DNA of 47,063 nt. It comes from Halocafeteria seosinensis (lineage: Eukaryota). The DNA is taken from NCBI GenBank assembly GCA_001687465.1, contig LVLI01000287.1:1-47063 (forward strand), in the 5' to 3' direction. A model generated the notes under the pieces. That model ran no database searches, was not told where the DNA came from, and saw only the letters and a list, made by a program, of their open reading frames with translations. Below, in pieces: positions 1,069 to 38,300 of the stretch (positions are counted from its first letter, which is position 1; every line of letters starts with the position of its first letter). The position numbers and the translations under genes are program-made.

Positions 1069-4000
1069 TCATGCTCGATCTCTCCTCTTAAAGGCAGGCA
1101 GCCCAAGGTCGGCAGACTGAACATTCCTTTGTAGCACTGGGTCGTTTTCCTCTATTTCTGTCAATCGGCCCTGAACCTCCTCAGAATAGAAACTGAAATG
1201 TTGTTCCGTATTATCACTTTGTATACTAATATTCTGGATAGGAAACCCTGACTGCGCTTGTCCATCGTTCTCAGTATTGGCTCTACAGTGTTCCATTTCT
1301 TCGAAAAAGTGTGGAAATGGACTGTCCGATTTTATCCAATGTTTCAATCGAGCCAACATAACTTCATCAGACTCTAGGGGAGAGCTAATCAACGCAAGAT
1401 CCTCCCTTGCGTGCTCAAACACAAACGTACTCGTATCCAACGACTCGACTATATCTTTTTCCTCCGACCTTGATTCCTCGTTGGCACGTTCCACCGTGTG
1501 TTGGTCACTCTCGTAGTGTTTAGTGCCCTTATACGAAGGAGTTGCATTAAAAAGTAGCTCCAGTGTATTTGCATGTTGCCCTGGATCATATGTGCGCCTG
1601 AAGTCACTGTATGGCTTATTGCGGGCTTTCCGATTCAGATAACCGGCGTCGGGCTTGCCGCTGTCTGATTTTTGTTGTATGTCCTTCGCCTCTGTCCTCT
1701 CACTGGTAGCCGGACCCATTGTCCATCCCATGAAGGGGTTATCCAAATCATCATCGCTGTCATTCTTGTCGCCTCCAGCGGAGGGTGTGCTTGAAGAATA
1801 ATGCCGAGAAGATACGTTTCCCGTTACTCTTGAGTTGTCCCCACTTCGAGGTACACCCATAGAATACATAGCTTCTTTTAAATTGTAGCCAGTGGCGGAA
1901 AGCTTAAGGGATACCCTGGTATTCGACGGCTGAGTCTCTAAAGAAGAAGACGCAACCTCAGAACTTCTGCTGCCGTATCCTGTGTTCTTGATTTCACCTT
2001 CAGATGAGATGGCTACAAGTTCGTGCTGGGAACCACTGCGATGATTGACTCCCTCTGTTTTCGAATTGAACCGGACTACGATTTCATTCGACGCGGTCTT
2101 GCGTATGTTCGTTTGTACCAAGGGCCACAGCGAACTGAAGACAGTTTCATCCCATATTCCGCACGCCGCCATGCTGTAAAGGAGAGTGAGAGCTTGTACA
2201 GGACCAAACAAGTGTGCTCCAGATTCGTTGCTCTTATTGGAGACACCCGGACGAATGTTTTCCAAACTCACATTACTTGAGTTCTCCACGTCACTTTTCA
2301 ACAGGGGGTTTTCTAAATCAGATTCATTGGCAAACACTTCAGAGTCGCTGGAAGATACGGCGACATCTTCTTTATCGGATGCAGGAATATCTTCTTCGTG
2401 GGGCCAAGCTGCAGCTATTGAAGAGGGTAGGTCCGCAGCGTATAGATCTTGGATACCGTTTGTGCGGTCATTGGACATGCTGCTTGCTGCAGTGTTATCT
2501 GCGTTGAACTTTTGAGTGACAAAATCCCGTATATGCCACGCAAGCTCGACAATAATATCTCGCTCCTTAGCCGAGATCCATAAGGGAGTTCCCTCCCGAT
2601 ACACATTTTTTTCAGTGTGCTCCCTGCGCATACCGAAGGGGAGATCGTGTTTGTCTCCTCTAGCTAAAGCGTCCCTAAACAATGCTCCCTCTGCCAAACC
2701 ATAAGCCAACCGGGTAACATGTATGCTCGGATGCATCACCGAAGCACGCTCTCGAAACTGGAGAGAATCCGGTAATCTGCAGTATGTCGATCTAACGAGG
2801 GCATCGAAGTATGGCATTCTGATCCTGGATGGATGTAATAAATAGTCATTCAATGGCTGGCTAGAAATCGCCTTGTCAATCCCATTGGACCACTTCTGAA
2901 TATCTGATAACGGTGCAAACAAGCGCAGACGAGCAGATGAGTAAAACAGAGCTGCGAGCTCGTGAGCTCTAGAAAAGAACGCTACGCCTCGTCCCTGGAC
3001 GAAATGTTTGCTCCGGCAATTGCGTAGGAACTTCTCAACTGACGTCTGGTCTTCAGAAGTTGGTTGATAAAATAAATCATGCGCTCCGGTTACTTCTCCA
3101 ACCCCACCTATTGGAGTTGCTGTTGTACCAATCAAGCGTTTGTCATTTACACCAGAAGGTTCTGATATCTTTCTTTGTTGAAGTTCCTCATGATGAGCCT
3201 GAAGCACGGTTCGTCTAATTGTTTGGGTGCGTTCTGCAAGTAGATCCATCCCCGCGGTTTCACTATCTTCCCCAGAAACCCGATTCTCGGCACTCTCTGC
3301 ACTGCCTTTCCAGCGATCGACCAAAGTTGTGCGGTTTTTCTGGGACCCTACATCAGTAAGTTGATAAAGCAATATGGAGCATAGCTCAAGGTCTGGAGTG
3401 TCCGTAAGAGAAGCTGCCGTGAGAATACTGGCGAAATCTAACGGTTTAGTCTGGTTTTTCAGTAGAGCTGCTTGGCTCAACAGAAGCTGTATTGCAGTAT
3501 CAGAGTCCACACCAGTATGCCGGACTGAAGCAAACGCCAAAGCGAGAGTTGACAACTCTCGCGCTCTCATGTGCTTTACTAGCGTTGCTGTCCTCTGAGC
3601 TATCGCTTGGAAAAAGCTCCCATAATGGATGCCCAGTCGGGCTGAGCTCCAAGTGAGATTCGCCAACGATATTGCTTGGAACTCACCGAGTCTCGACATG
3701 GCTTCATTAGCAATTTGCCACGCGAATAAAGCATCTGGTCGCTGCCTTGTCCGAGCGAACGACCACAATAATAGCGCTAATCCTTGAGCCGAGCAGTCCT
3801 GGAGTAGCGACGCCGCATGGCGCGTGACAGCATCAAAAAAATCCGCATGAGCATAGCGAGCCCTTCCGTAAGCATAAAGAGCTAAGACGAGTCCTTGAGG
3901 GGTAAGTTGATGCAATCTTGGCATCAGGAAATCAGCACACGACTCGAAAAGGGGGTGGTATGCCCAATACCATTGTCCGAAAGCATACAGTGCATTCACT

Positions 4001-4740
4001 ACAGCCCGAGGATCGACCTTACCGGGATTGTGTGTAATAGAAGAGACGATCAAGTCGGCACCTTTTAGCATCAGCCCGCTCACCCGATCGGCTGGTTTCG
4101 GAACTATTCGCCCAACTGCATGGAGTATCAAACTACTTGCTCGCGGAGGGAACTCATTCGGGACGCTGGACATTAAATCTTGGGCATAATCTGTAAGCTC
4201 AAAGAATCGTGGATCCTGCGCAACCACAACGTGAAGCCAAGAGTCATAAAAAGTTTCTTCGATAATGATGTGAACCGATTGGGCACAACGTACCTCTGCA
4301 GCAGCTTGCCGATTCTGGCCTTTGACCATATAGTTAAATGAAGCCGCTACTACAATAGGGTTGAACAGTTCCGTGTCCTTGTACTGTTTGAATCGGGCGA
4401 GGACTACTTTGTGGGCTGGCTCGGGCGACTTGTGCACTTCGGTCTTGAGCAAAGCCACCAACTGCCGTGGGTCTGAAAGCTCCCTCCTGGGTAATGGTTG
4501 ATATCGTCCATCATCGCGGAAGTGACCTGTGGCGGCCGATAAGTTTCGCTTCTGTATTTCTGTCCTCTCCTCAATCCAGCTATCCACTGTCCACCGCAGA
4601 CTTGACGAGGGTCTCCCTCCTCCTGATGGCGACGAAAATCGCCGTATAGAGAACGTATAAGGGTGGAAAATGGAGGAAAATGAATAGCGACCCCGTCGTC
4701 GCAGGAGGAGTCCCGGACGGGAGCCTCCTACTAGTGCCAT
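1069..4740 (-). CDS. Organelle (probably mitochondrial) helical-repeat RNA-binding protein, HPR/OPR/FASTK-like
   Basis: Likely start MALVGGSRPGLLLRRRGRYSFSS (Arg/Ser-rich presequence). Repeats of ~37 aa: PRAVVNALYAFGQ, TPQGLVLALYAYGRA, SAQGLALLLWSFAR, QAISLANLTWSSARLG, RARELSTLALAFAS. Probable in-frame 78-nt intron 4216-4293 (GTACGT...GCGCAG). The ORF track start at 4902 is a non-ATG extension. Confidence 0.7.
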   Translation of the reverse strand: MALVGGSRPGLLLRRRGRYSFSSIFHPYTFSIRRFSSPSGGGRPSSSLRWTVDSWIEERTEIQKRNLSAATGHFRDDGRYQPLPRRELSDPRQLVALLKTEVHKSPEPAHKVVLARFKQYKDTELFNPIVVAASFNYMVKGQNRQAAAEVRCAQSVHIIIEETFYDSWLHVVVAQDPRFFELTDYAQDLMSSVPNEFPPRASSLILHAVGRIVPKPADRVSGLMLKGADLIVSSITHNPGKVDPRAVVNALYAFGQWYWAYHPLFESCADFLMPRLHQLTPQGLVLALYAYGRARYAHADFFDAVTRHAASLLQDCSAQGLALLLWSFARTRQRPDALFAWQIANEAMSRLGEFQAISLANLTWSSARLGIHYGSFFQAIAQRTATLVKHMRARELSTLALAFASVRHTGVDSDTAIQLLLSQAALLKNQTKPLDFASILTAASLTDTPDLELCSILLYQLTDVGSQKNRTTLVDRWKGSAESAENRVSGEDSETAGMDLLAERTQTIRRTVLQAHHEELQQRKISEPSGVNDKRLIGTTATPIGGVGEVTGAHDLFYQPTSEDQTSVEKFLRNCRSKHFVQGRGVAFFSRAHELAALFYSSARLRLFAPLSDIQKWSNGIDKAISSQPLNDYLLHPSRIRMPYFDALVRSTYCRLPDSLQFRERASVMHPSIHVTRLAYGLAEGALFRDALARGDKHDLPFGMRREHTEKNVYREGTPLWISAKERDIIVELAWHIRDFVTQKFNADNTAASSMSNDRTNGIQDLYAADLPSSIAAAWPHEEDIPASDKEDVAVSSSDSEVFANESDLENPLLKSDVENSSNVSLENIRPGVSNKSNESGAHLFGPVQALTLLYSMAACGIWDETVFSSLWPLVQTNIRKTASNEIVVRFNSKTEGVNHRSGSQHELVAISSEGEIKNTGYGSRSSEVASSSLETQPSNTRVSLKLSATGYNLKEAMYSMGVPRSGDNSRVTGNVSSRHYSSSTPSAGGDKNDSDDDLDNPFMGWTMGPATSERTEAKDIQQKSDSGKPDAGYLNRKARNKPYSDFRRTYDPGQHANTLELLFNATPSYKGTKHYESDQHTVERANEESRSEEKDIVESLDTSTFVFEHAREDLALISSPLESDEVMLARLKHWIKSDSPFPHFFEEMEHCRANTENDGQAQSGFPIQNISIQSDNTEQHFSFYSEEVQGRLTEIEENDPVLQRNVQSADLGLPAFKRRDRA

Positions 4741-5017
4741 TATCTCCCTCCAGACACTCTGTTTTCCAGAGACAACTTCACTAAAGAGGCAACAACGTTT
4801 CAGGGTCAATAAAACAAACACTGTAATATACAGGGAAGCTAAGCCACAAAGGCGGTTGGTGTCAGCGCCAACTTCAACTTGAGCCCCATTTCGTCCATTC
4901 ACTCCAGTTTCGTGTTTGTATAGTCTAACATGAGATAGTATATGTTGTTTGGATTGATCGTTGGTGTAGATGCTTAGAGTAATTGGGATAATAAAGGGGA
5001 AAACAGCAAACGTGAAG

Positions 5018-5750
5018 ATGGCAGGACTAGCACGGGGCTATGCACAGTGGTTAATACCTCGATTGTTTGCTCCACAGCTCGTTTTCAGGGTACCCACGGC
5101 TTCATTTAGGACGCTAGCAACTACTCGCAGCCTAGTTCGTGTGGGACAGAGATACTTCTCCAATACAGAGAATCAACCAGAGGAGAGTACCAGTCACCAG
5201 CCTGGACACCAGGAAGATGCTACTGGAGCTACAGCTGAAGAAGCGGCAGCATCAACAACAGACGCGAACAGTGACGGACGCCCGGATGAGAACGAACTAG
5301 CATCCATGTATGGATATCATGAGGTATGTCGATTGTCCCCGGTCTCTCCGCATGGTCCACGAACCCTTTCATCTTTGTTGCTGGCAGGCGCTTGTGTATC
5401 ACTGGAGGCAAGAAGGTGCTTTGAGATGGGAATGGATAAATCGAATTACAGGGCAGGATCAGCTGGTTTCTTTAGTTAACCGCTTCGCAGTTATGTCTAC
5501 GCCTTGCCCCGAACTGTATGAAGGTCTCCAAGATAAATTCAAACCCATGCTTGGTGAAATGGAAGGTCCATATTTATCAACAGTTGCATACGCTTTCGGT
5601 GCTCAGAAGTCGGGTGACGATAAGTTCTGGACGACTCTTATAGAACGAGCCAATGCTCTAAAAGGGCATTTAGCAGAGCATGAACAGAATAACATAGTTA
5701 AGGCTCTGGAACACATAGGGAAGACCCAAGAAGCTTCTCAGTTAAAATAA
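5018..5750 (+). CDS. Small putative mitochondrial protein with a FAST/HPR-like helical repeat (2 exons, ~222 aa)
   Basis: Presequence-like N-terminus MAGLARGYAQWLIPRLF...RYFS. Intron 5324-5387 (GTATGT...TGGCAG, phase 0) joins ORFs 4970 and 5310 in frame. Repeat-like segment MEGPYLSTVAYAFGAQKSGDDKFW. Confidence 0.65.
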
Positions 5751-6040: not shown

Positions 6041-9000
6041 ATGGAGAGTGGAATGGGTAGCTCGGGGCCTCATCGGGAACATTTCCGAGGCCATGGACGC
6101 TTATTTCGTTGGGATCCCCAGCGTAATCACTGGAGTATATTAGGCTCAGGCGCTGTTCTCGTAACCGAGAACCCCTCCAATGGGCACTGTAAACTCCTCA
6201 TTCGGAAGACGAAAAAGGGCAAAGAGATCCTCATGTATCATCCGATTGATCCTCAATGCCGTCTGGTATGTTCTATCCTTCTAATGCGCTTTTCCCCGTG
6301 GATAAGGCTTACAAATGCATCCCTGTGACTTTAAAATGTTGATATGCAGGGCTCAACGCAAGAACCCCGTGAATGGACCTTCCAAGCCCCTCTGTACAAC
6401 CCAGAAGATGGGACAATATCCCAGGACCTACACATGTTTGGTCTTCGTCTGTCAAGTGCTGATGAAGCGCAAGACTTCCAACGACGGTATGATGAGGCTC
6501 GACAGCGTATGGAAGACATTGGAGGTAGCCAAGGGCAGTTCAAGCAGGCTGCTTCACCCACCCAAATGCCTCAAATCCCGGAAGAAGGGGATGAGGAAGA
6601 AGACCAGCACAGTCGGGAGTTCCAAAAATTCCTTGACTCTAACCAGTACACACTGGAAGGTGTTTTGAAATACGAAAAAGTGTTTGGTCACGGCTACGTT
6701 TCCACCGGGGGATACGAAACGACCAAGGCATTCCTCCCATTGATGAAGTTGCAGCGGGGAGAGCATGTGTTTGACTTGGGATGCGGCGTTGGCGGTGGAG
6801 ACTTTGAGATGGCTCGGAAATACAAAGGTTAGTCGTGATAGAAGCCGTGCTGCTTCACTAGAGCACTGGTGTACTAATGCTTGTTAATTTCAATCCACAG
6901 TGTCCGTTCTTGCGATTGACCTCTCTGCCAACATGTTAAGAGTTGCGGCCGACCGAGCACGAGAAGCCATGGCTGACGGGGAAGACATTGACGTAGAATT
7001 CAAAGAAATGGATGCAACAACAGCCCAATTTGGTGATGAGAGTTTTGACGTCATTTACTCTAGGGATACTATCTTGCACATTGAGGATAAGCACGATTTG
7101 TTCCGCAAGTGCTACCGCTGGTTGCGTCCTGGTGGACGAATCCTCATCAGTGACTACTGTCGAGGCGAAAACAGTGATGAAGAATTTCGCGAATATGTTA
7201 AGCAACGAGGATATCATCTTCTCACAGTGCCGCAATATGGAAAGGTATTGGCAGAATCTGGATTCCAGTACGTGGATGCGAGAAACGTCACCGATCTATT
7301 CACTGAGAGTTTGCGTAGGGAACTCAACAAAACCGAAAAACTGGAGGACCAGTACATAAGGTAAGATCACCGATTTCGATGTGCATAATGCTTCTTACTG
7401 ATGGGATAGTCTTTTATTTTTTTCCTCCGGTGACTTCGGTGAGGAAAGCTTCAAGAGCATCACTGACGGGTGGAAACGAAACCTCCAACGCTATGAAAAC
7501 ACACACACACATATGTGACAGACTGCGAAAAACGTTTCCAACAGTGGGGACTCTTCTTCGGATACAAGCTTCCTTCACCGAAAAAAACACATTGGGACAT
7601 CCCAAATTCCAAACTGCCAGGTAAACGGGAAACTGTCGGCCATCCAAACACTGGAAGATGGGTAAAATCTTATTTCTGCTGCAATGAGGAGATTCGGCGC
7701 CAGGCCATAGTACGAGGAGCAATCGCAGGCCTAGGAGTGCTCACACTAACTGTAAGCCTAATGAAGGACGAATCGGGTCAGAGTCTCAGAGGCGTGGAAT
7801 CTGTGGAGGGTTCAAACACTTAGGCCGCTCAATTACCAAATTCCCGGCCGGTGGGCTATCTGTCACATTTGTGTGTGTGTACCAAAGGTAAGAGTTTATT
7901 CACGGGCTCATCTGCTTCTTCTGGACCAAGCAGTGGTAGTCCACGTATGCCTCCTCGTGGCGGTGCCCGCCAGTACCGTTAGACGCGTTTTGGCAAGTCA
8001 AGTTGGTTTGTTTCATGTCTAACTTGTACTTTAATACACAATAAGCACCAAAACACTAGATTTGACCAGCAGACATGTACAGTTGGATCTTCAAGCCTGA
8101 TTCACAAGGGGTGTGTGTGTGAAAATTAATTTTTTCTTTCATGGACCATGGTATTGTTCATTTCAACAAAAGGATTGACTACTTTAATATACAATAAGCA
8201 CCAAAACACTAGATTTGACCAGCAGACATGTAGTTGGATCTTCAAGCCTGATTCACAAGGGATGTGTGTGTATGGGGTCTTTCTTCCATGGACCATGGTA
8301 TTGTTCATTTCAACAAAAGTATTGTCGTCGCGTACATGAAGAGCAGAGTGAACAATGAGTAGCGCTGTTAGTACCACCCAGCTGGGGGAGGAGTGGCTCA
8401 CTTTCTTGGCATGGTGGAGTGAGTTTTGTGAAGACGATGTTGCACAGATGTTGCAATCTGGTTTAGGAGCCGTATGCAAGGCTGCTCGGAATGAAACTGG
8501 TCTTCGATTCGCTTGACGCATCCCAAGTCAGCTGCCAAGTGCGCCACCAGCACCGGCTGCGTCTGCATGGAAGTCGACTCACAAATGATAGTGGGTCACA
8601 TACGTGACAGATAGCCCACAGGCCGGGGAGTTGACCGCATCCTCTTAACGAGGAGCGGTATGCGCCCGCAACACTGGGTTTGCTCAAGAGGCATCGCGGT
8701 GCCGCCATGCCTGCGACAACTATGTCAGGATACCTACAACGCTCAGCCTGGGAAGAGACGGCCCTGTGTCCGCCACAGCGACGCTAGGACCGGTTGCAGC
8801 AGCGCAGTTAGGATTAAACGTTGGTCCAGACGAGCAGTTGTCGGCCATTGACATGCCGCCACCTGACGTGGGAAGGTGCCGCCCCAGGAGTTCCGTCCAC
8901 CTCTGTTTCGTCAACATGGCCCATGTTGTAGTACATCTCCTGCTCGAGGTCAAAGAAGATGCAGCTACCCAGGTCCTTTTGAAGCCACGAAACCGGTTCC

Positions 9001-12000
9001 CACGTCCGTGCTGACTTTGGGTAGCCCTTTGAGTGGACGACAATCCGCTTGTGGATCCTGAAGTCGATAAACCTCTCGACATAATCTACCGTGTGTGTAG
9101 CTCTAGGCGGCCAGTCTAGGCAAGAAAAACCATTTCCCATTCGGTTGTTTGACGCGGTCTTCGCCAAGTGGTCGGCAGTCGTGTTTGAAGCCTGCGTCAT
9201 GGTTGCGTATTAACCTATTCTCAGCGCTCCTCACCATTGGGAGGTTCGAAAAGTGGTCCGAGCCCTGTGGGATGAGCTTGTCCTTGAGACACTGGGCTTC
9301 GCCACTCATGTGTCTGTGTACATTAGAACGGTGTAACAAGAAGATTTGCCTCCAATATCACATCAAACAAACCGAAAATTCTAAAACAAGAAAGGACAAA
9401 ACCAGGGGAGTCAATCCTTGGTAGGGTCCAAATTTTGTAGCGCATGGGCAAAATGGACGCAAAATTACCTGTGCATGACCTCCCTATTTGTGTGCATCCT
9501 CGAGTTTCTGTAGCATTGATATGAGTCGATGTTTATGACTTAGGATCATCATATGTACAGTATTGGCTGTTGAACTGGGAAGTCACGTCACATTTGTCTC
9601 AATTCATTTACTTGCTCCGCCCACAATACAAACAGAGGGAACGGACTGTATCAACCAATTGTTGCAAAGTGCTTATAAGGAAATGTCCCGTCAGCGAAGC
9701 GAGAAAATGTACGATTTGGCATTGAGAGTCAGGAAACGTGGCCATAGTTTTACCGAGAACGTGTTACGATACACAACCATGAAACCCTATTTTTGCTGGC
9801 CATGGCTAGGACTATGACCATGGGACACATACGAAACAAATTCACGAGAATTTCTTTGCCGACAACGACAACGGCGCGGGTAAACATGGTAACAACGAAG
9901 TCAGATTATGATTCTAATGATTCACGAATTGTGTTGGAATTTCGATTTATACGTACGTTTGCTCCGAAAGATTACCGATGGATCTTGGAATTTGCTCGTT
10001 GTCCATTGTTGGCACAATGCTTGCGCCCCTCGGGGACTGGGGACCGCTTGGAATAGGCCGAACAGAAAGAGTCCCATCTATTCGACGAGTAGTAAATGGG
10101 CAATCATTCTTGGAGTTGGTGAACCCCATCATGGAATGCTAAATGACATAGTTCAGCAAATGTTGCCGAAATACACCATTTCAAGCAAACCCAAACCATA
10201 AGCTAAGCCAAAGTGACAGTTCAGGAACGAGTTCAATGGTCTCAGTCGTTCGTTGAACGAAGCCACTCTCGTACAACAGGTTCGGCAAGAAACCCGTCGT
10301 TTCTAGCGCCCAAGTATCTCCACTGTGAAACTACAGTTTTCTTCAATTCTTGCAGACCATTGGGGCGGAGACAAGGGCAAATGTCGTCCAACCACTGCGC
10401 AGTGAATGTATCAGACGACGTCGAACGTCTACTATTCCGTGGTAGAACCTGTCCATTGACGTTATGTTTCTCAAAGTAAGAATCAACTAGTATCTCCTCC
10501 TCACTCTCAAACCAGGAACGCAGAACCTCGGCTTGCTGCTTTCGAAGTTCCAGCTGGTTGTGAACTACCTGGGTATATGCTGGGCCTAAGAACGGTAACG
10601 TATTTATGTCTTGGCACAGCGTGTTGATGAGTTTTTTCGCTACCTCCACGACCAAATTATCTGTTGCTGCCACATAGCACATACAAAGTCCTACGTAACA
10701 GAAATGGAAGAAAGTTTTCTCGTCTTGTTCTCCACCGGCATCGTGCGCGGGGCGATACGCATGATATAACAAACAGAGTTTATCGATAGACGCACTGAAT
10801 TCTTCCGACGCAAGAAGAATAAGTTTGCTAAGTTGCACACACAAGACTCCCGTCGGTTGCTGGAGAGTTTGATTCGTGCGGATCGCGAGATCAAGTAGCT
10901 CGTAAGCTCCATTCATATCTCGATGGAACAGAATCTCAATCAAATGAGACAATTTATCGTCATAACGAGCCTTATACCGTATCAGCAATCTATCCGTAAT
11001 TATCGGAAACTGGATGAGGAAACGAGTAACAGCCTGTGTCAACCTCTTCCAACATACATGTCTCAAGATACCCATTGTTCCGACGGGATGAAGAAACGGA
11101 TGAATGCGTCTTGCCCAATCATTCCGAACAAGAAGTCCCATGCCCAGGCGTCCGTAACTTCCAAGATCCGACCTTAACTCCTTTATCAAAGTTTGTGTAG
11201 ATGAAAAACCGTGACTTGAATGGTCAAATCCCCCCATGAACAACTCAATGATCGATAATCGTTCGACAAAGAGAACAAATTTATCTTCGCCGTCGCATAG
11301 ATGTTGGATGACCGGCTGTAAAAGGCAACAACGACCACGCAAAGCGGTGAGCACCGCTGAATAGTTCGTACGCAGCCATGGGTCAGACCGATTCGAGTCT
11401 ATCTCGCGCTGCAAGACGGACAATGCGTCCGTGGAGGATGGAAACCATGCACGAAGGACTGATAGCATATTTGACATTTCATCAATGGATAAGACAGGAG
11501 TAAATACAGCATCATCGTCCCTGAAAGGAGCATCATTGAGGGATACCAGTAGCACACGTGCTTCTGAAGGAAGCCTTGCTGTCAATTTCGCTCGTGCCTC
11601 ATGAAATAGCATCTTCTGACACAGAAAAACGTACGCATGCGCTTCCTTATATTGTATCGCCAGGATATCATTTATCTCAGTTCGTTTGTTAACGTGTCGA
11701 ACAGTAACCTGAAGAAAATAGTCCGACAAAGTTCCTCGAATAGTCGTGTCTAGCGCTCGCATGACAGCTGTACGCAGTCCACAACGCATAACAATTCTTG
11801 ACAAGTGCATTTCACCGTATTTACACTGACGTTGTTGCATGCTCACAAGTCGATTCGAAAAGAGCTCGCATAACGTGCTCGTAACTGTCCTATCAACGTC
11901 AACACGATCTTGTCGGCCCAAGAGTTGCGCGGTCAGCGGCGTTTCGCCGCTGAGAAATCGGAAGATATCACCGATCATGTGATCCTCTACGACTGGCTTG

Positions 12001-15000
12001 TCCAAGTATTCAAACGTAGGAACGTTGGAAACCTGTACTTCGTCGCTCTGCATGCACTCTGCATTTCCCCCCTTTTTTACTCCTTGTGGAGTAAACGTCA
12101 CTTTATCCTCGTCAAAAACAATGGCAGTCGAGAGGGTATGAGAGTTGTTCAAGCTTGATAGAGGAAATATAAACAAAAGCATATTGGTAAAACCCAACAA
12201 GGCTTCGTACTGACTCTTAGCAAACACTGGATCATCTGTAAACACCATAACTGTTGTCTGAGGACTTCTATCAAGTTCGAGTGTCTCATACAACTCCTGA
12301 ATTCGCCGACATAGCGGAGCTCTTGTCGCACGATGTCTGCTCGAATGTGTCACTACCAGGCAGCATGGTAGTAGTCTTGCTGGAGACACCCCATCATCAA
12401 AAAAAAGACCAACATGAGTTTGATCAATCATATTCCACGTCTCATTCCATTGCATTTTATCAAGTAACGGCATAGAGACAGACGAACCAACTGCGAGAAT
12501 TCTATACCGCTCGGGTCCGCAAAAATGTCGGAGAGTTGCAAACATATGCCTCTCACCATAGAGGAGCAGTAAATCCCAAAACTCCCGATACTCCCAAGGG
12601 CGAAGGCTGGAGCGAATTGTTTTGGCTCGGATAAGTTTTTGTTCCACAAACAGACCCGAACAATGCGGTAACGTGATAGAAACACAACAATGTTCAAAAT
12701 TGATACCAAATTCACTCTCATCTACTTCCGCCTCCCCATTGTTCACACATTCCTCAATTAGGTTCCAAGACTCTCGATTCCGACGTACATCCATCGGTAT
12801 ACCAAATTTTAACCCCTCAATTCTCGGTATTACACTCATTTGTTGTATACTTTGCTCAGCTCGCAATGCTAAGAGCGATCTATTTTTCTCCTTTAGCTTT
12901 CTTAAAATGCGTTTGGCAACGTTTGAGTCAAAGACAGTCAACTCCTGTACCCATCTTGTACTCGGTCCACAAGAAATATCCTCCTCCTCAATTTTGACGG
13001 TGTTAACCACTGCCCTTAGCTCCGATACGTCACGCTGTTTCAACTGCGGGAACATGTTCGAAAGCGCTTCCTGTACCCACTCTTTCACCAACTCCTTCAA
13101 TTCCTCTGGATTTGCAGGGAACGGAAGCAACGATAGGTTATCCGCAACGCCTATACAAATTTCCGTCTTTTGCCCAGTTGACAACAGCTGTGGTATGTAC
13201 TCTCTAAAAATGTTCTTAATAAAATTCCCATCGGTGTTATCTGGCTCATACCACGGGAAGAACTTGAATTCCTGTGCACTTGATTCGGGAGTGTACTCTT
13301 CACCCAGTCTCAGAGAGTCGTACACAATTTGTGCATTGATGCTACGGGACCAGCCATGCAACGGTTCAGTCTCCAAACAGGTCACAAGTTTGTCTGGTTG
13401 ATATTCCACGGAGAAAGCTCCTGAGCGTACAGACACACGCTCCAACGGTGGTCGTCTCGTCCCCTCTACGCCAATCGCCGCGAAGAACTGCATTGTACCA
13501 TCAACACTTGTTTTGAGGATTTTCATAATGTAGTCTTCCTGGGGGTCGTCTCCAATTGTCTCCCTTTCAAACATACGTAGCTTGGTCATTATATCCCGAA
13601 TTTTGGCTTGAAGACTTTGTTCGCTCTCATAGCCATTATTTGTGTCGGCATTTTTCCACAGAGGCTGAAGCTTGAGTTGATTTGCACGTTCCAAATATTT
13701 TACGCCGATCACAATGACACCGCCACCAGAATAAATGATGGCTTCTACCAGTTTGCTTAAGTCCTCTTTGGCTGGACCGGCGTTAAGCGTTGTAGCCCCA
13801 GAATCACGTGGCCACCAAAACCATTTCTCTTGCTCTGTCGCCAATGTCGTTGCATTGGAAGAGAAAACACCGTTCTCAGCTTTAGTGTTCTCAATATATT
13901 GCAGACAGGTTTGGACTGCATTCGGAACATCCATCGTGCTCTCGACTAGAGTACAAGTAGCACTGTTTTGGCTTGAAGTAATAAAGACTCTGTGTGACGA
14001 GAAATACCTCTGTATTTCGTAATATTCACGTTAGTTCAATACCTTGTACAGTATTGTAGTGTATGTTAAAATGACATAAGTATTCAATATATTACGCTTC
14101 AAGCACGGCCATCAATGCAACGATAGCCCTACAACACTGTATCCACCTTCCCCCCAAAGCCTTTTTGTTTGCTGTCCCTTACCGTCGGAAGTTACCGATG
14201 CCACAACATGAAGATGCTGGACCGGTTCCGGGTAGGGTTCACCCCTCACACAGCGTACACGTCTTCCGGTAAGAGCAATACCAATACACACATACATATG
14301 GTTGCCAACGACGACGCGGTTATCACTACGATGGATTCCATCGGATGGAAGCACGAATTATAATTCGAGTACGTTATATCCGAGGGACAAATATGTAGCA
14401 ACTCTTGTTTCTTTTTTTCTTTTTTTTGGCGCAAGAATATCGACTGTAGAAACCGCGAAATGTCAGGGAGACTATCGTACATTCGTGGCGGACTGATGCT
14501 GATCGTTGTGCCCACTGTAGACAACCTAATATGTAACATAGTAGCACACACACACATATGTGACAGATAGCCCACTGGCATACACCAGCTGCGAAGCGGA
14601 CGACGCTAGATAAGTAAGCGCTGAGCAGCCTGGCAGCCCTTGGCCATGGACATATGTGTGTATTCAACTAGTAGACAACTACCTGCGGTCTATCAACCTG
14701 GAAACTCATTGTTGTAACGACGCACATTGGGACGCACATCCGGATCGTGCCGGTTTTGACTGGGACCTATTGATGAAGCAACCGTTCTACGACACCCGCG
14801 TGAGCCACAGCTGAACTACAGTACTGCGTGGTTTATTGTTTTGGTTTGGGAGACATCTTGACTTCCTCATCCTTGCGAAACACTTTGGCCACACACACAA
14901 ATGTGACAGATAGCCCACCGGCCGGGAAGTTGACCACTTTGGCCTGCGTTGGCTACGGAGCGCACCTCTGCCGCCTCATGCTTAGTAGTATTTATGGCCT

Positions 15001-16497
15001 ACCGGCTAAGTGGAAATGTAGTCATGCTTTGCTGTTAGCGAACCGTAGCTTAAATATGAGTAGCACGGACTTATACGTCCTTGCACTAGCGATGATGAAA
15101 TCAACTGCGTTGGCCTGCGGTCTACATTTGCGTCCAGCTAGTGCAACAAGCAACAGGCGTGGCTGCGTCATACTGTGGAAGCCTTGTCCAAAACACGCAT
15201 AGCAACCCGATTCATACTTTCTCGAATTGTTCTAGCTCAAAACGTGACCGATGAGGTTTTGGCAAGAACTGGAAGGTGTTTTGAAATACGAAAAACTGTT
15301 TGGCTATGTTTCCACCGGGGATACGAAACGACCAAGGCATTCCTCCCATTGATGAAGTTGCAACGAGGGGCATGTGTTTGACTTGGGATGCGGCGTTGGC
15401 GGTGGAGACTTTGAAATGGCTCGGAAATACAAAGTTTAGTCGTAATAGAAAGTTGTGCTATTTCACTGGAGCACTGATGTACTACAATGTTTGTTGATTT
15501 CAATCCACAGTGTCCGTTCTTGCGATTGACCTCTCTGCCAACACGTTAAAGGTTGCGGCCAGCCGAGCACGAGAAGCCATGGCTGACGGGGAAGACATTG
15601 ACGTAGAATTCAAAGAAATGGATGCAACAACAACCCAATTTGGTGATGAGAGTTTTGACGTCATTTACTCTAGGGATACTATCTTGCACATTGAGGATAA
15701 GCACGATTTGTTCCGCAAGTGCTACCGCTGGTTGCGTCCTGGTGGACGAATCCTCATCAGTGACTACTGTCGAGGCGAAAACAGTGATGAAGAATTTCGC
15801 GAATATGTTAAGCAACGAGGATATCATCTTCTCACAGTGCCGCAATATGGAAAGGTATTGGCAGAATCTGGATTCCAGTACGTGGATGCGAGAAACGTCA
15901 CCGATCTATTCACTGAGAGTTTGCGTCGGGAACTCAACAAAACCGAACAACTGAAGGACCAGTACATAAGGTAAGATCACCGATTTCGATGTGCATAATG
16001 CTTCTTACTAATGGGATAATCGTTTATTTTTTTCCTCCAGTGACTTCGGTGAGGAAGGCTTCAAGAGCATCACTGACGGGTGGAAACGAAAGCTCCAACG
16101 CTGTGAAAAACATTTCCAACAGTGGGGACTCTTCATCGGATACAAACCTCCTTTACCGAAAGAAACACATTGGGACATCCCAGATTCCAAACTGCCAGGT
16201 AAACGGGAAACTGTCGACCATCCAAACGCTGGAAGACCAGTAAAATCTTATTTCTGCTGCAACGAGGAGATTCGACGCCAGGCCATAGTAGGAGGAGCAA
16301 TCGCAGGCCTTGGAGTGCTCACACTAACTGTAAGCCTAATGAAGGACGAATCGGGTCAGAGGCGTGGAATCTGTGGAGGGTTCAAACACTTAGGCCGCTC
16401 AATTAAGAGCTTATTCACGGGCTCATCTGCCCCTTCTGGACCAAGCAATGGTAGTCCACGTATGCCTCCTCGTGGCGGTACCCGTCAGTACCGTTAG
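6041..16497 (+). CDS. PMT: Split RanBP1-like domain / phosphoethanolamine N-methyltransferase (PMT-2/plant MT2-type) fusion gene; reconstructed 539 aa
   Basis: Exon 1 6041-6265, exon 2 6350-6827, exon 3 6901-7360 (duplicated at 15511-15970); exon 4 is intact only at 16041-16497. Motifs [82 protein letters not shown] and [15 protein letters not shown] match the second MT domain of plant PEAMT and nematode PMT-2. Confidence 0.85.
7500..7522 (-). mobile_element. 23-bp 3'-end retro-insertion, (TG)n-tailed family
   Basis: CACACACACACATATGTGACAGA is absent from paralogous copy B. Flanked by a 9-bp TSD, CTATGAAAA/CTGCGAAAA; the empty site in copy B reads CTGTGAAAA. Confidence 0.85.
7841..7879 (+). 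mobile_element. 39-bp 3'-end retro-insertion, (TG)n-tailed family
   Basis: TTCCCGGCCGGTGGGCTATCTGTCACATTTGTGTGTGTG with 7-bp TSD TACCAAA (7834-7840 / 7880-7886); absent from copy B. Confidence 0.9.
8027..8324 (+). repeat. ~150-bp tandem duplication of the PMT-LRR intergenic sequence
   Basis: Units 8027-8177 and 8178-8324 (TACTTTAATAYACAATAAGCACCAAAACACTAGATTTGACCAGC...CAACAAAAGKATTG); copy B has a single unit at ~16538-16688. Confidence 0.9.
8355..8480 (+). pseudogene. Truncated 5' fragment (42 codons) of the LRR gene
   Basis: Near-identical to 16719-16844 (one substitution), then homology stops abruptly at the duplication breakpoint. Confidence 0.9.
8597..9360 (-). mobile_element. Degenerate longer member of the (TG)n-tailed retroelement family, with chromodomain and possible GIY-YIG remnant
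   Basis: The 3' end (8597-8725) matches the 179-bp copy at 32244-32422 apart from an internal deletion. Upstream frames give [34 protein letters not shown] (chromodomain pattern) preceded, via a 1-nt frameshift, by [13 protein letters not shown]...[17 protein letters not shown] (weak GIY-YIG C-terminal pattern). The 5' boundary is approximate. Confidence 0.65.
10242..13934 (-). CDS. Intronless SAMD9-like protein: two Schlafen/AlbA_2 domains + degenerate STAND-like NTPase + helical C-terminus (1230 aa)
   Basis: Domain 1: [20 protein letters not shown]. Domain 2: [11 protein letters not shown]...EICIGVAD...RWVQELTV. Then RYRILAVGS...KMQW, and [10 protein letters not shown]...VDRTVTSTL...[20 protein letters not shown], resembling the SAMD9 FYRGG...VKRD...IHLYHHPGCGGTT segment. 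Similarity is judged by eye from recalled family motifs. Confidence 0.65.
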   Translation of the reverse strand: MDVPNAVQTCLQYIENTKAENGVFSSNATTLATEQEKWFWWPRDSGATTLNAGPAKEDLSKLVEAIIYSGGGVIVIGVKYLERANQLKLQPLWKNADTNNGYESEQSLQAKIRDIMTKLRMFERETIGDDPQEDYIMKILKTSVDGTMQFFAAIGVEGTRRPPLERVSVRSGAFSVEYQPDKLVTCLETEPLHGWSRSINAQIVYDSLRLGEEYTPESSAQEFKFFPWYEPDNTDGNFIKNIFREYIPQLLSTGQKTEICIGVADNLSLLPFPANPEELKELVKEWVQEALSNMFPQLKQRDVSELRAVVNTVKIEEEDISCGPSTRWVQELTVFDSNVAKRILRKLKEKNRSLLALRAEQSIQQMSVIPRIEGLKFGIPMDVRRNRESWNLIEECVNNGEAEVDESEFGINFEHCCVSITLPHCSGLFVEQKLIRAKTIRSSLRPWEYREFWDLLLLYGERHMFATLRHFCGPERYRILAVGSSVSMPLLDKMQWNETWNMIDQTHVGLFFDDGVSPARLLPCCLVVTHSSRHRATRAPLCRRIQELYETLELDRSPQTTVMVFTDDPVFAKSQYEALLGFTNMLLFIFPLSSLNNSHTLSTAIVFDEDKVTFTPQGVKKGGNAECMQSDEVQVSNVPTFEYLDKPVVEDHMIGDIFRFLSGETPLTAQLLGRQDRVDVDRTVTSTLCELFSNRLVSMQQRQCKYGEMHLSRIVMRCGLRTAVMRALDTTIRGTLSDYFLQVTVRHVNKRTEINDILAIQYKEAHAYVFLCQKMLFHEARAKLTARLPSEARVLLVSLNDAPFRDDDAVFTPVLSIDEMSNMLSVLRAWFPSSTDALSVLQREIDSNRSDPWLRTNYSAVLTALRGRCCLLQPVIQHLCDGEDKFVLFVERLSIIELFMGGFDHSSHGFSSTQTLIKELRSDLGSYGRLGMGLLVRNDWARRIHPFLHPVGTMGILRHVCWKRLTQAVTRFLIQFPIITDRLLIRYKARYDDKLSHLIEILFHRDMNGAYELLDLAIRTNQTLQQPTGVLCVQLSKLILLASEEFSASIDKLCLLYHAYRPAHDAGGEQDEKTFFHFCYVGLCMCYVAATDNLVVEVAKKLINTLCQDINTLPFLGPAYTQVVHNQLELRKQQAEVLRSWFESEEEILVDSYFEKHNVNGQVLPRNSRRSTSSDTFTAQWLDDICPCLRPNGLQELKKTVVSQWRYLGARNDGFLAEPVVREWLRSTND
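14545..14579 (-). mobile_element. 35-bp 3'-end retro-insertion, (TG)n-tailed family
   Basis: CACACACACACATATGTGACAGATAGCCCACTGGC; no clear TSD. Confidence 0.8.
14891..14934 (-). mobile_element. 44-bp 3'-end retro-insertion, (TG)n-tailed family
   Basis: ACACACACAAATGTGACAGATAGCCCACCGGCCGGGAAGTTGAC with perfect 10-bp TSD CACTTTGGCC (14881-14890 / 14935-14944); 3-nt microhomology (CAC) at the 5' junction. Confidence 0.93.
15268..15434 (+). pseudogene. Decayed remnant of PMT exon 2
   Basis: No upstream exon or start. Deletions of 6, 1 and 2 bp relative to 6652-6827. Splice donor GT->TT at 15435; the intron branch-site-like TACTAAT has become TACTACAAT. Confidence 0.9.
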
Positions 16498-16844
16498 ACG
16501 CGTTTTGGCAAGTCAAGTTGGTTTGTTTCATGTCTAAACTACTTTAATACACAATAAGCACCAAAACACTAGATTTGACCAGCAGACATGTAGTTGGATC
16601 TTCAAGCCTGATTCACAAGGGGTGTGTGTGTGAAAATTAATTTTTTCTTTCATGGACCATGGTATTGTTCATTTCAACAAAAGGATTGTCGTCGAGTACA
16701 TGAAGAGCAGAGTGAACAATGAGTAACGCTGTTAGTACCACCCAGCTGGGGGAGGAGTGGCTCACTTTCTTGGCATGGTGGAGTGAGTTTTGTGAAGACG
16801 ATGTTGCACAGATGTTGCAATCTGGTTTAGGAGCCGTATGCAAG
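15268..16844 (+). repeat. Direct segmental duplication, copy B
   Basis: Paralogous to 6652-8480. 15634-15926 is identical to 7024-7316 (293 bp, offset 8,610). Confidence 0.97.
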
Positions 16845-31770: not shown

Positions 31771-32520
31771 ATGAAAAAGCTACTTAAAAATTGTTTTGCG
31801 GAACCAAGGGTGTTGATAAACCCTTAGAGGAAGCAGGCTGGGTTGTTACATCTCTCGATAATGATCCAAAAACTAATCCAACAATTATGGAAGACATTCT
31901 CAAACTTGACTACAGAAGTCGCTGGCAACCAAGAGAATTTGAGGTAGTTTGGGCATCTCCGCCTTGTACAGAATACAGTCAGATGAGAAACATTTCTATC
32001 GCTCATGGCGTCCGATCGGAATCTAGAGTTTGCCAACAGTATCGTCGCAAGAACGTTAGACTTGGGACACTACCTTCGGCCCAAGTTCTGGTTCTTAGAA
32101 AACCCTGACACTGATTACTTAAATTTCAAGAGCTGGTGAAGGATATTCCTTTTGTTGGAGCGTTGTAAATATGGCTATCCTTATCGGAAAAGAACTAGGT
32201 TCTGGAAGGGTTAGACCTGAAGATGTGCGAATACGACTGACTAGGCGCAGGCATGGCTCCTCCTCCGATGCCTCCTGAACAAAACCAGTGTTGTGTTCCC
32301 TCACGGCGCATGTCAGCAAGACTGCAGGAACAGCGGGCTCGTCGCTGCNTAACATACCGCTCCTCATTAAGAGGATGTGGTCAACTCCTCGGCCGGTGGG
32401 CTATCTGTCACATATGTGTGTGCGACTGACTATACCTCGGGAAAAACCTTCCGAAGAAGACACCTAGCAGTAGTTACTGGAACTCGAAACGATGATTCGA
32501 TGGGGTATCCATGGGTATCG
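31771..32520 (+). pseudogene. Frameshifted small C5 cytosine DNA methyltransferase (viral/mobile-element type)
   Basis: Motif I MKKLLK/LFCGTKG, motif IV VWASPPCTEYS, motif VI RPKFWFLENP and motif VIII CKYGYPYRKRTRFW lie in shifting frames. No introns; interrupted by the 179-bp insertion. Confidence 0.85.
32244..32422 (+). mobile_element. 179-bp 3' fragment of the (TG)n-tailed retroelement, inserted in the DNMT pseudogene
   Basis: Ends ...GGCCGGTGGGCTATCTGTCACATATGTGTGTG; perfect 10-bp TSD CGACTGACTA (32234-32243 / 32423-32432). Confidence 0.93.
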
Positions 32521-35335: not shown

Positions 35336-38300
35336 TTAACATAGACGGGATCTTTGCAAATAGTTGCTGCTCAGTTGGGAGCAGAACTGATGGGATATGC
35401 CCTTCTCGACGCAACATTGTGCCCGCTTCAAAGCATCCAATTCTTCATTGAATTCGTTGGAAATCTCTTCTACAAATTCTTCATGTTTCCCTAGAAGTAT
35501 CATGACGGTCTCGCGACACTCCAAGTACGGAAATCCTGTGGTCAATGCAAGTGTAGGACGGTCCTTCCATCGAGCCGCGTAGTATTGAAGCCAGAATTCC
35601 AACAAGTTGCAAAAGCTCTGAAGCGTTTCTCTTTTATCCTCAACTTCTTCCGAAGGGGTGCCATGTTCTGAGTCTGTCCGATCCAAAGAGTTATACCATG
35701 CTTTCGTGAAAGGGACCGGAGGATATGCCGACGAGGCGTATGTCTGAAGCTGTTGCACAAACATAGGCAATTTGCCCTGCTTGTGAGCAATTATAAAATG
35801 CAGGATTGCAGTATTCAAGCAGCATATGTTTTCTTGGTTGATGCTCTCCACGTCGTGTATAACATCCATTACGTTCATCAACATAGGTACGGCCCAAAAA
35901 TGCAGAAACGAACATATTTCCGATTGGAACAATCGTTGCCCATTTGCTGGGGGTAAGCGAGACACGGCAGGTTCAAGTTGTTCCACATCAACAATGAACT
36001 CCCCACGTGCGTTGTAAGTCTGCGGTAATTCATGGGAAGTGCCAGCAATCGGAACAGTGAACGTCGTCCACTGAGGAAAGTCTTCAGCCTTCGCCGTGGG
36101 CTGAGCATTATATACTTCATGAGCCCATCTGCCATTGTTAGAAAACGTGTTCACCATGTCGCGAACCAACGGTATCCCTGTGCTCACCGAAAACAATTGA
36201 GGGGTTTCCGTGGATGTCGAGTCTTGCAATCTACACCAGTGCATTGTAAGCAGAATACTCCGCAGGAATACAGTCGAATCAACTGGACGTTGACACAGCG
36301 TCCTAAGAAACCGGTTGACTTCAACCTTCGACAGTTTATTCAAACCGATGTCGACGTCTTCCAGCGCACATGGGTTCATCTTTACAGTTTCTGCAAGCAA
36401 ATCGAACGCGCTTTGGAATGTTCTTAGTTCCAAATTTTTGTCGGGACTGCAAGAAGAGTGACCATGAGGACTCGAGTTATTCACGTCCCCACCTTGCTCT
36501 GTGTCAGGATCCAACGACCTTGAGTCGAGGAACTCGTCGAAGACGCTGAAACCAGATGAAACATATGCGCTGGCATCGCCATTTTCCAGATTCTCATTTT
36601 CGGACTTTCCGCGATGCCGGGAACGACGCCGCATATCCAAGTACTCTATTGATCGCATCAGATACTTAAGCAGTCCGTACCTTGCTGCCCACTTACGGAC
36701 GCTCACTGGGCTGTTACGGAGCAATGATTCGATACAAGAACTAAGCCAAAATCTGTAGGGACTCTTGAAAGAGCACCCAACAAGTAAACTAAGGGCTTGC
36801 GAAGCAACGCTTGCTTCAGCATCCAACCCACTTTGCCGGTATGAATCACAATCATAATGCAACAGTGCTTGAGCTATATTGTCACCGTTCGGGATATCCC
36901 TTTCTGATTTGCACAGATTCGCAAATTGACTCAACACTGTAATCGATTCAGACAGCTTGTCATCCGTTACATCATGACAGCTTAGATCTAAACCACAATC
37001 AGCACTCGTTACTAGGGGGCAGTATACAGAACGGAGAGGTTGGTTGACTGCTGGTTGGGGCATACTTCCCGGTGATTGACGAGGAAGGCCTTTGTCATAG
37101 GCCATATTCGCGACATCCAAGGAGTCTTTGTCTAAGGAAAGCGCTCCCGGACCTAAATTACTCTCTAATAACTCATCCAGGCTTTCTTCCCATAGTCCGG
37201 GCCGATTTGCAAAAAATGTTACTAGTGGGTTACTGCTGAGAGGAAGAACTCCGTGAGCTCCATATCCAACAGGCACCGACAAAGCTCTAGTCGTTCTTGG
37301 GGGAGCAGGGCCACCAGTATCAGTCAAGTCGCGAGTACTAAAACTGGCTTCTCCGTCGTATGCTTCCCGAGTGTCATGAGAGAGCTCCCATGGCCGCAGC
37401 AGAATTTCCAGGAACACTGCCAAAGCACTATCTACAGCCATCCTTTTCCCTCGCTCTGTTCTGATTGAGAGGGCCAAACTCTGGTCAAAACAGGGGCGGT
37501 TAAGATGCTGCGACATTGATTCGAGGAGCCTACTGGTCACGTTAGTCGAAAGCGAGCGAAACATCTGAGATGCACAATCCAGCAGTTTCGTATGCCATTC
37601 GGACACCTGGTGCTCTTCCATCTCAAAGAATGCTAATTCTTCAACACTGAAAGCGCGCCTTCGAGTTATCCACCTCTGCACAAACAATAAAAGAAAGGAC
37701 AATAAGTACATGTAGTCCACCTGTAAGGCCATCGTATAATGGGAGTATCCACGAGGTGCAGATGGTGAACACCATCTTGCAGATTAGAACTTTGCTATGG
37801 CACACTTCATGAACCTGTCCCTAGTGACAGTTCTAGAAGCAGGCCTTCGAGTGTGCCGCTACCGGTCGCAGCCAAAGCAGAACTTACCTCCAATGCAGTT
37901 CTTGATTCCCCTCGGTCCACAATGCTATGGAGTAACCGGAGAACTTGAATCTTATTGGAACTTTCCGGATCACATGTACAGCTGCAAACAAAGCCAGAAC
38001 GCAATGTAAGGATCCTAGTTACCCATAGCATGACTAACAACAAGCAAACAGCTTTGAAAATCCTCGTTCTATACGGCACATGGTAGACCGGAACAACGCA
38101 CAAAACAGCATTTCCCAGTACAAGAAAGTGCCGAGCCGATATATCTAGACCAAGAAACTTACCTCTCCCCGTGAAGTCGCGGAGGTTCCCAGTCAGCAGG
38201 CTTCTCTGTCCAGCTAAATGAGGTATGTTTTAGCAGCGTAGTTGTGGCTTGCATGATTCCATAGTCGGCCAAACAATCTTGGAGTGTTTTCCGATTGCGA

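Follow-up and report, generated by a model that had tools for sequence, protein, structure and literature searches.

In the 47,063-nucleotide (nt) stretch of Halocafeteria seosinensis contig LVLI01000287.1 (assembly GCA_001687465.1) that was analysed in full, referred to below as the window, a single-exon gene at 10242..13934 on the minus strand encodes a protein of 1230 amino acids (aa), which appears to combine a Schlafen-type bilobed head with a degenerate SAMD9/Avs9-type body. With a confidence slightly better than even, we favour the explanation that it is a predicted autoinhibited tRNA/rRNA nuclease, with a Schlafen-type two-lobed RNase head, acting in cell-autonomous defence. On the model of Schlafen biochemistry, the two head lobes would clamp base-paired tRNA or rRNA, and the second lobe would cut the RNA through a metal-binding triad, while the SIR2-like/NOD/helical body may hold the head closed until a ligand opens the body, which would be the trigger. 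As judged from the alignment, the NOD, devoid of the Mg-ATP residues, would serve as a scaffold or clamp and not as an ATP switch.

The gene itself is real, intronless and intact. Its open reading frame (ORF) begins with ATG and contains zero internal stops, for which the chance of an equally long stop-free run is about 1e-28 at the window's composition, and a 4862-nt contig of run X1 covers 9283-14132 without a joint, the same run splicing the neighbouring gene. A 3.7-kb uninterrupted intronless ORF antisense to a gene labelled PMT had been described in an earlier note on this DNA, and the stop-free frame and the unspliced contig bear this out; the motifs it had listed are likewise in place (GVKY at aa 77, PES at 216, QEFK at 221, GVAD at 262 and CGLRT at 718). 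The one X1 contig, with the strand taken from the ORF, gives an inferred unspliced transcript with untranslated regions at 9283..14132 (minus strand). The stretch is present in four runs of one study (X1-X4), none recorded as RNA; because X1, X3 and X4 skip the GT..AG introns of the neighbouring gene and X2 does not, the former were taken as RNA and the latter as DNA, with the joints in that gene as the only basis. The GT..AG introns of the neighbours mark the window as eukaryotic, and the label 'protist' is in keeping with a compact genome and with the EukProt record described below. The transcript was found in all three spliced runs with no known challenge applied, and the 5' half of the ORF is uncovered in X3 and X4, which is evidence neither way. 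In X2, the depth over the ORF was 105.5 compared to 116 and 106 in its unique flanks; at 13683-13812 a bubble with branch depths of 51.6 and 51.3 points to two alleles. No allele carries an indel or stop in the ORF, and two indels lie in the 5' flank.

Relatives are few. Among 5.8 billion clusters the sole full-length match was P0001, a EukProt record labelled as a complete ORF, which is 99% identical to the 1230-aa protein (differing at 12 of 1230 residues), and a search of 1.84 billion representatives returned four proteins, namely P0001 and three fragments. Of two other homologue searches, one again gave P0001 alone and one gave nothing. Through one fragment we reached P0005 (990 aa, 39% identical over 942 columns), which stops shortly before the histidine of the WHD. 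P0003 is 44% identical to the 1230-aa protein and shares its accession prefix with P0001, so the source organism probably has paralogues of the gene. No relative was found in viral, metagenome or prokaryote-genome contigs or in plasmids, although the contig scans use short exact patterns and are blind to distant relatives.

The N-terminal part of the protein can be assigned with high confidence, from profile comparisons, to two AlbA/Schlafen lobes. Lobe 1 (aa ~36-175, 13410..13829, minus strand; boundaries approximate, from hhalign) resembles an AlbA_2/Schlafen N-lobe without the acidic triad, and lobe 2 (aa ~205-316, 12987..13322, minus strand) resembles a Schlafen C-lobe in comparisons with SLFN11 and the AlbA_2 profile, with a predicted catalytic triad on the minus strand (E217 at 13284-13286, E222 at 13269-13271 and D265 at 13140-13142) plus K224. 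A two-sequence profile of aa 30-450 ranked SLFN11 (7fex) first among 177,635 PDB sequences (E 0.022), and a longer profile matched SLFN11 at E 0.35; the alignment consists of a colinear pair of pieces, of which the one on the N-lobe (45-67) is weak and the other places PES..EFK..IGVxD on the C-lobe (177-259, domain E 0.14). Against 61 bacterial AlbA_2 domains (taken from 69 loci, eight being dropped as duplicate, Avs9-type, partial, edge or stop-containing), hhalign scored lobe 1 at 37.7 (P 4.6e-5) and lobe 2 at 25.7 (P 0.004), compared to a maximum of 21.5 in 53 block shuffles and 15.4 for the reversed alignment. P0005 shows a sub-threshold Pfam SLFN_AlbA_2 match on lobe 1 (E 0.015), and the displayed feature matches from the ESM Atlas all carry SLFN_AlbA_2 (0.77-0.79), which has the standing of a lead. 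The adjoining aa 317-460 (12555..12986, minus strand), a stretch of ~95 aa followed by a further segment, have no family match and are 32% identical to P0005 over 300-450; going by a resemblance seen by eye, the segment at their end may close the Schlafen core.

In the sequence comparison, the E-x4-E-x-K motif and its downstream Asp are confined to lobe 2, as in the Schlafen C-lobe. All four residues (E217, E222, K224 and D265) are retained in P0005, where lobe 2 is among the two best-conserved regions (49% identity), and lobe 1 reads WFWWP and IGVKY in both proteins. The head is reasonably likely to be an active nuclease. The claim that two AlbA_2/Schlafen lobes are present, of which the second alone has the acidic triad, was upheld by profile scores above all controls and by E217, E222 and D265. 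The related claim that the first lobe lacks its Asp is correct for IGVKY and understated, the whole E-x4-E-x-K motif being gone as well (WFWWP); since Avs9-type bacterial AlbA domains also show GVK, GVK alone is no marker of inactivity. We presume a catalytic role for the second Asp of GVDD, from the spacing in PMC5862951. The proposed intramolecular pair of an active and an inactive nuclease is real, and it corresponds to the N-lobe/C-lobe core of Schlafens (PMC5862951); we therefore rejected a novel active/inactive pair in favour of an ordinary Schlafen pseudo-dimeric core.

The body of the protein is likely, on profile evidence, to be of the SAMD9 type, an assignment in which we place good confidence. 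A SIR2-like domain of the SAMD9/Avs type (aa ~470-600, 12135..12527, minus strand) is followed by a delta/NBD/HD1/WHD region (aa ~601-965, 11040..12134, minus strand), a predicted pseudo-NTPase delimited by hhalign with landmarks transferred through the alignment to SAMD9 and PMC13600222. For comparison, bacterial SAMD9-like proteins were collected from at least 120 loci by a Walker-A pattern, and the set was reduced to 49 long sequences homologous to the Labedella endophytica protein in locus L009. A 34-member alignment of this bacterial family matches human SAMD9 at E 5e-55, with nSTAND_NTPase5 in 32 of the 34 members and AlbA_2 in 12. Aligned by hhalign to the 49 bacterial cores, the query family scored 58.7 (probability 86, P 4.8e-6, 511 Viterbi columns), compared to a maximum of 31.7 in 25 shuffles and 18.6 for the reversed control, and the alignment is colinear over aa 470-1018, about 550 residues, at an aligned identity of ~17%. 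Selection cannot have produced this match, since the collecting motif is absent from the query. The SIR2-like, delta+NBD and HD1-WHD-HD2 segments each scored above all 57-60 shuffles by small margins; the SIR2-like segment (23.2 against a shuffle maximum of 22.9, a margin of 0.3; P 0.0036, 0/60 higher) is weak on its own. Two cyanobacterial sets, one of NACHT (21 rows) and one of NB-ARC (19 rows) sequences, reached 17.6 and 22.3, compared to 36.8-44.3 for 20-row SAMD9-like subsamples, and a NACHT or NB-ARC identity of the body was rejected on this ground. The Pfam nSTAND_NTPase5 model does not detect the 1230-aa protein.

The nucleotide site of this body is degenerate throughout. In SAMD9, the corresponding residues are given in PMC13600222 as H737, GGT 742-744, D799/D800, sensor-1 R837 and WHD H985, and the substitutions T744A, D799A, D800A and R837A are there said to lower or abolish antiviral activity. 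None of the H-x-P-G-x-G-G-T Walker A, the acidic Walker B and the sensor-1 Arg was found in the 1230-aa protein. Its Walker B strand reads YVFLCQK, without Asp (P0005 keeps one Asp), its sensor-1 position reads SLND, without Arg, and H985 maps to H949, where the His is kept. The P-loop (712-722) was left unaligned by hhalign; in a register set by eye on GCGGTTLAMHIL, the places of G743 and T744 are taken by Leu and Arg. The degenerate loop is nearly identical in P0005 and so is under constraint in its altered form. A degenerate Walker-A equivalent reading CGLRT had been claimed before, and the profile scores support a SAMD9/Avs9-type STAND body with such a P-loop. As Walker A, Walker B and sensor-1 are all degenerate, the nucleotide switch is probably a pseudo-ATPase or pseudo-NTPase.

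The C-terminal 265 aa occupy 10245..11039 (minus strand), and the colinear body alignment extends into them as far as aa 1018. Near the end, YLG-x4-G-x-L-A at 1207-1217 coincides, without significance, with the bacterial family's terminal OB-fold motif: the best local match of the last 141 aa fell on that motif at 13.9, within shuffles (maximum 18.5), and a post hoc position-specific scoring matrix of the motif ranked the C-terminal stretch second within the protein. No helicase match emerged from the Pfam and PDB scans, and a dedicated helicase profile lacked sequences (one partial match in 41 genomes).

A number of results speak against the proposed identification, which rests on remote-homology statistics. 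The domain calls come from profile comparisons with shuffled controls, no library naming the protein significantly: Pfam returned 0 families at E<=0.1 for the ORF and its pieces, and PADLOC, PHROGs and NCBIfam gave no significant match. PDB sequence searches with single proteins likewise returned nothing significant, no SAMD9 chain was among the PDB matches at E<=10, and the ESM Atlas gave no match for aa 440-1230; an Rfam scan of 7400-16500 was also empty. For the head, only one Schlafen chain was matched in the PDB, the Avs9-type AlbA profile fits neither lobe (E 0.26), and the similarity between lobe 1 and lobe 2 is not significant (E 0.12). For the body, a plain hidden Markov model of the bacterial core scored the query at noise level (-1.9 bits, compared to 2.4 for the reversed sequence and a shuffle maximum of 3.0; P0005 reached 1.9 against a shuffle maximum of 1.2, and the fragment P0004 8.0), the two-sequence hhalign was weaker (probability 29, E 6e-4), and the profile tests did not demonstrate a TPR array or a C-terminal OB fold. 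Two AlphaFold2 models, one of aa 1-460 alone and one from a two-sequence alignment, failed with mean confidence scores (pLDDT) of 31.6 and 30.2, and the lack of a Foldseek match at E<=0.001 with the second is meaningless given a pLDDT of ~30. Finally, purifying selection gave a weak signal: the ORF's 23 variant sites, with 13 of them nonsynonymous and the other 10 synonymous, correspond to a ratio of nonsynonymous to synonymous variation (pN/pS) of 0.38-0.53, the range being set by the assumed transition bias, with p 0.02-0.10 against neutrality. Three of the 23 sites rest solely on contigs of depth <7, and five more amino-acid differences unique to P0001 were excluded since their synonymous partners are unknown; their inclusion would raise pN/pS.

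Given nuclease activity, a defence role would be quite likely, somewhat more so than the activity itself. Several diverged or truncated relatives of the gene exist, as is common for immune genes, and this counts against the alternative that the same architecture, with an active nuclease, is used for RNA processing or the control of selfish elements and not against viruses. That alternative, which we consider improbable, gains from the transcript's presence in runs with no known challenge and from the setting of the locus, whose flanks are mostly high-copy repeats (X2 bin depths up to 29,500 and 43,700 compared to 105 on the ORF) in a window with reverse-transcriptase relics; Schlafen domains have also been tied to transposon suppression in roundworms, according to PMC13056530. 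The SIR2-like plus STAND body, however, serves animals and bacteria as a chassis for defence (PMC12680541, PMC13600222).

Two further alternatives, equally doubtful and each less probable than the preceding one, question the parts. The protein may be a paralogue that is catalytically silent or has a regulatory role, namely a decoy or a pseudo-enzyme that binds RNA, with both the nucleotide site and the nuclease in disuse, as would fit the degenerate NOD motifs, a drift below every library threshold, the net acidic lobe 2 (11 K+R compared to 19 D+E) and a pN/pS of 0.49-0.69 in the body; against this stand the four catalytic-site residues kept in a relative only 39% identical and the conservation of lobe 2 in it. 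Alternatively, the head may be Schlafen-like and the body an alpha/beta look-alike with no homology to SAMD9/Avs9. The missing direct SAMD9 match, the noise-level plain model, the unaligned P-loop, the small margins of the segments over shuffles and a query profile for the body built from 2-5 sequences only are consistent with a look-alike, but it would have to explain a colinear match of ~550 residues, correctly ordered and scored far higher than the controls, its specificity against NACHT and NB-ARC, and its independence of the collecting motif.

That a mobile element brought the gene in as cargo, or that the gene inserted recently and thereby made the flanking duplication, is very improbable: the gene's position amid repeats and between direct copies of 96.6% identity, its lack of introns and a CpG observed/expected of 1.07 (slightly high, compared to 0.75-1.10 in eight other ORFs) fit such an origin, but its codon-position GC is in line with the same eight ORFs, its depth equals that of the flanks with two alleles, other long single frames occur in the window (1322, 824 and 815 aa), no relative was found in the viral, metagenome, prokaryote-genome and plasmid collections, and 8481-15267 contains no transposase or reverse-transcriptase ORF and no identified element boundary around the gene. 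The words 'cargo' and 'recent' in the earlier note were dropped for these reasons, and the gene looks like a resident one beside a segmental duplication. Besides a 279-codon shadow frame on the opposite strand (12562-13401), it is the only long ORF in 8481-15267. The sole mobile-element-like trace in that interval is a weak chromodomain-like match (Pfam E 0.12) at 8814-9209 (minus strand), repeat-rich and possibly a retrotransposon relic.

The gene lies between, and antisense to, the two copies of a methyltransferase-gene fragment. Copy 1 (6652..8480, plus strand) holds the 3' part of a RanBP1-like/methyltransferase gene and the first 40 codons of a leucine-rich-repeat (LRR) gene, and copy 2 (15268..16844, plus strand) is 5'-truncated, has frame-breaking indels in its 5' part and continues into an intact LRR ORF. 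The upstream gene (6041-7360 and 16042-16200) is a fusion, confirmed by spliced contigs, in which splicing joins one SAM-methyltransferase domain to a RanBP1-like exon (Pfam E 0.0014); the domain resembles the C-terminal half of phosphoethanolamine methyltransferases, in keeping with the 'PMT' label. All three spliced runs join 7358 to 16039 with GT..AG ends, which reads as an 8.7-kb intron around the 1230-aa gene. A true intron of this kind is nevertheless unlikely, as the base patterns at 7317 and 8331 agree with copies whose middles have been swapped. On either side of a 293-bp stretch in which the copies are identical (7024-7316), they differ at six preceding and three following sites. Compared with copy 1, the RNA contigs show three differences in the exon concerned, of which the listed one (7317) has the copy-2 base. 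Contigs carrying the copy-2 base at 8331 also seem, with equal depth, to extend past the end of the duplicate to 8499, over an identical stretch of 118 bp (8363-8480). It is reasonably likely, then, that the middles of the two copies were exchanged in the assembly and that the true order is intact methyltransferase gene, 1230-aa gene, decayed copy and LRR gene.

Elsewhere in the window, a short repeat present in high copy number, marked by a (CA)n/(TG)n end and by a GC-rich near-palindrome, recurs at 7500-7522, 7837-7887, 8591-8662, 14545-14579, 14890-14937, 32353-32422 and 46604-46659; it breaks a methyltransferase copy and a reverse-transcriptase frame, and run depths of thousands to tens of thousands suggest hundreds of copies. 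Reverse-transcriptase relics lie at 1-624 and 44519-46679 (both minus strand; RVT_1 E 8.5e-11 and 1.9e-18). The latter, by eye a non-LTR element, has a 170-nt inverted copy at the window end, and in the ORF after it a cysteine/histidine knuckle occurs together with a nuclease-like motif. A multi-exon gene occupies 35336-40633 (minus strand; DUF3689, E 3.7e-29), and the 1322-codon frame at 1069-5037 (minus strand), with a weak FAST-kinase-like match (E 0.08), is by eye a helical-repeat protein.

What would be new, and unusual, is the combination of a Schlafen bilobed head with a SAMD9-type body, as known SAMD9-type members carry one AlbA domain. We suggest only tentatively, at somewhat less than even confidence, that the protein represents a third, protist branch of the SAMD9/Avs9 chassis, in which the nucleotide switch is dead and the head is a complete Schlafen pseudo-dimer, so that the two animal tRNase families meet in a natural hybrid. 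PMC12680541 records no SAMD9-type matches in plants, fungi, algae or protozoa, and PMC5445408 lists SAMD9-type proteins from animals and bacteria. The EukProt screen of the former used the Pfam AlbA_2 model with at least 90 covered residues, and the 1230-aa protein, having no Pfam AlbA_2 match, would fail it; the EukProt accession of P0001 is absent from four of its supplements. We found no description of a protist SAMD9-like or bilobed-Schlafen-STAND protein in the literature covered, which excludes most subscription journals. If the assignment is true, SAMD9-type immunity extends beyond animals and prokaryotes, and both lobes in one chain can make ATP-dependent nuclease pairing dispensable; a protist member so highly diverged would mean that such proteins have been missed below detection thresholds. 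A Schlafen head on a SAMD9 body would also offer a direct test of the need of SAMD9 for ATP and oligomerisation against the lack of it in Schlafens, and the protein is a specific candidate for the cell-autonomous antiviral defence of single-celled eukaryotes, about which little is known.

Compared with known systems, the head is closest to the Schlafen core, an N-lobe/C-lobe pseudo-dimer (SLFN11, SLFN13; PDB 7fex; PMC5862951). Both have tandem AlbA-type lobes with E-x4-E-x-K and the downstream Asp in the second lobe only, and PES..EFK and IGVxD align with SLFN11, whereas the 1230-aa protein has ~95 extra residues after lobe 2, matches weakly (E 0.022) and continues into a SIR2-like/STAND-type body instead of the linker and helicase of Schlafens; it is not a long Schlafen, as no helicase was detected. 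With SAMD9/SAMD9L (PMC5445408 and PMC13600222; PDB 9zjr) it shares the order of AlbA-type nuclease, SIR2-like, delta, NOD and helical C-terminus, a non-canonical P-loop and the WHD His (H949 for H985). Unlike them, it has no SAM domain and carries two lobes in place of the one C-lobe-like domain attributed to SAMD9 in PMC12215978, the positions of SAMD9 H737, T744, D799/D800 and R837 read R, R, Q/K and L/N, and the region past the WHD His is ~320 aa shorter. The best profile match of the body (P 4.8e-6) is to bacterial Avs9/Avs6 (nSTAND_NTPase5; L009, L039 and others), Avs6 having been described from Labedella endophytica in PMC12680541; these differ in having one AlbA_2 domain and, by selection of the set, an intact H-x-P-G-x-G-G-T-T loop. 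With the nucleotide motifs and the single AlbA domain both missing, the 1230-aa protein is neither a SAMD9 nor an Avs9 in the strict sense. The N-termini of bacterial SAMD9-like STAND proteins are themselves varied (among 34 aligned members, AlbA_2 in 12, TCAD9 in 11, APH in two and PNP, RRM and CSD in one each), as seen at L004, L005, L016, L031, L035, L054, L056, L077 and other loci. SAMD9 has been proposed to gather its tRNase domains by oligomerising (PMC13600222), and the single-lobe bacterial Schlafen of SLFN-pAgo is described, in bioRxiv 10.64898/2026.05.29.728809, as rebuilding the bilobe by ATP-driven oligomerisation. The sensor of SLFN-pAgo is unrelated (Argonaute and a GHKL ATPase) and its lobe single, but its oligomerisation logic is one that a built-in second lobe would bypass. 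As single-lobe SAMD9 and bacterial Schlafens are thought to depend on oligomerisation for pairing their nuclease domains, the built-in second lobe could, speculatively, have relaxed selection on the nucleotide site.

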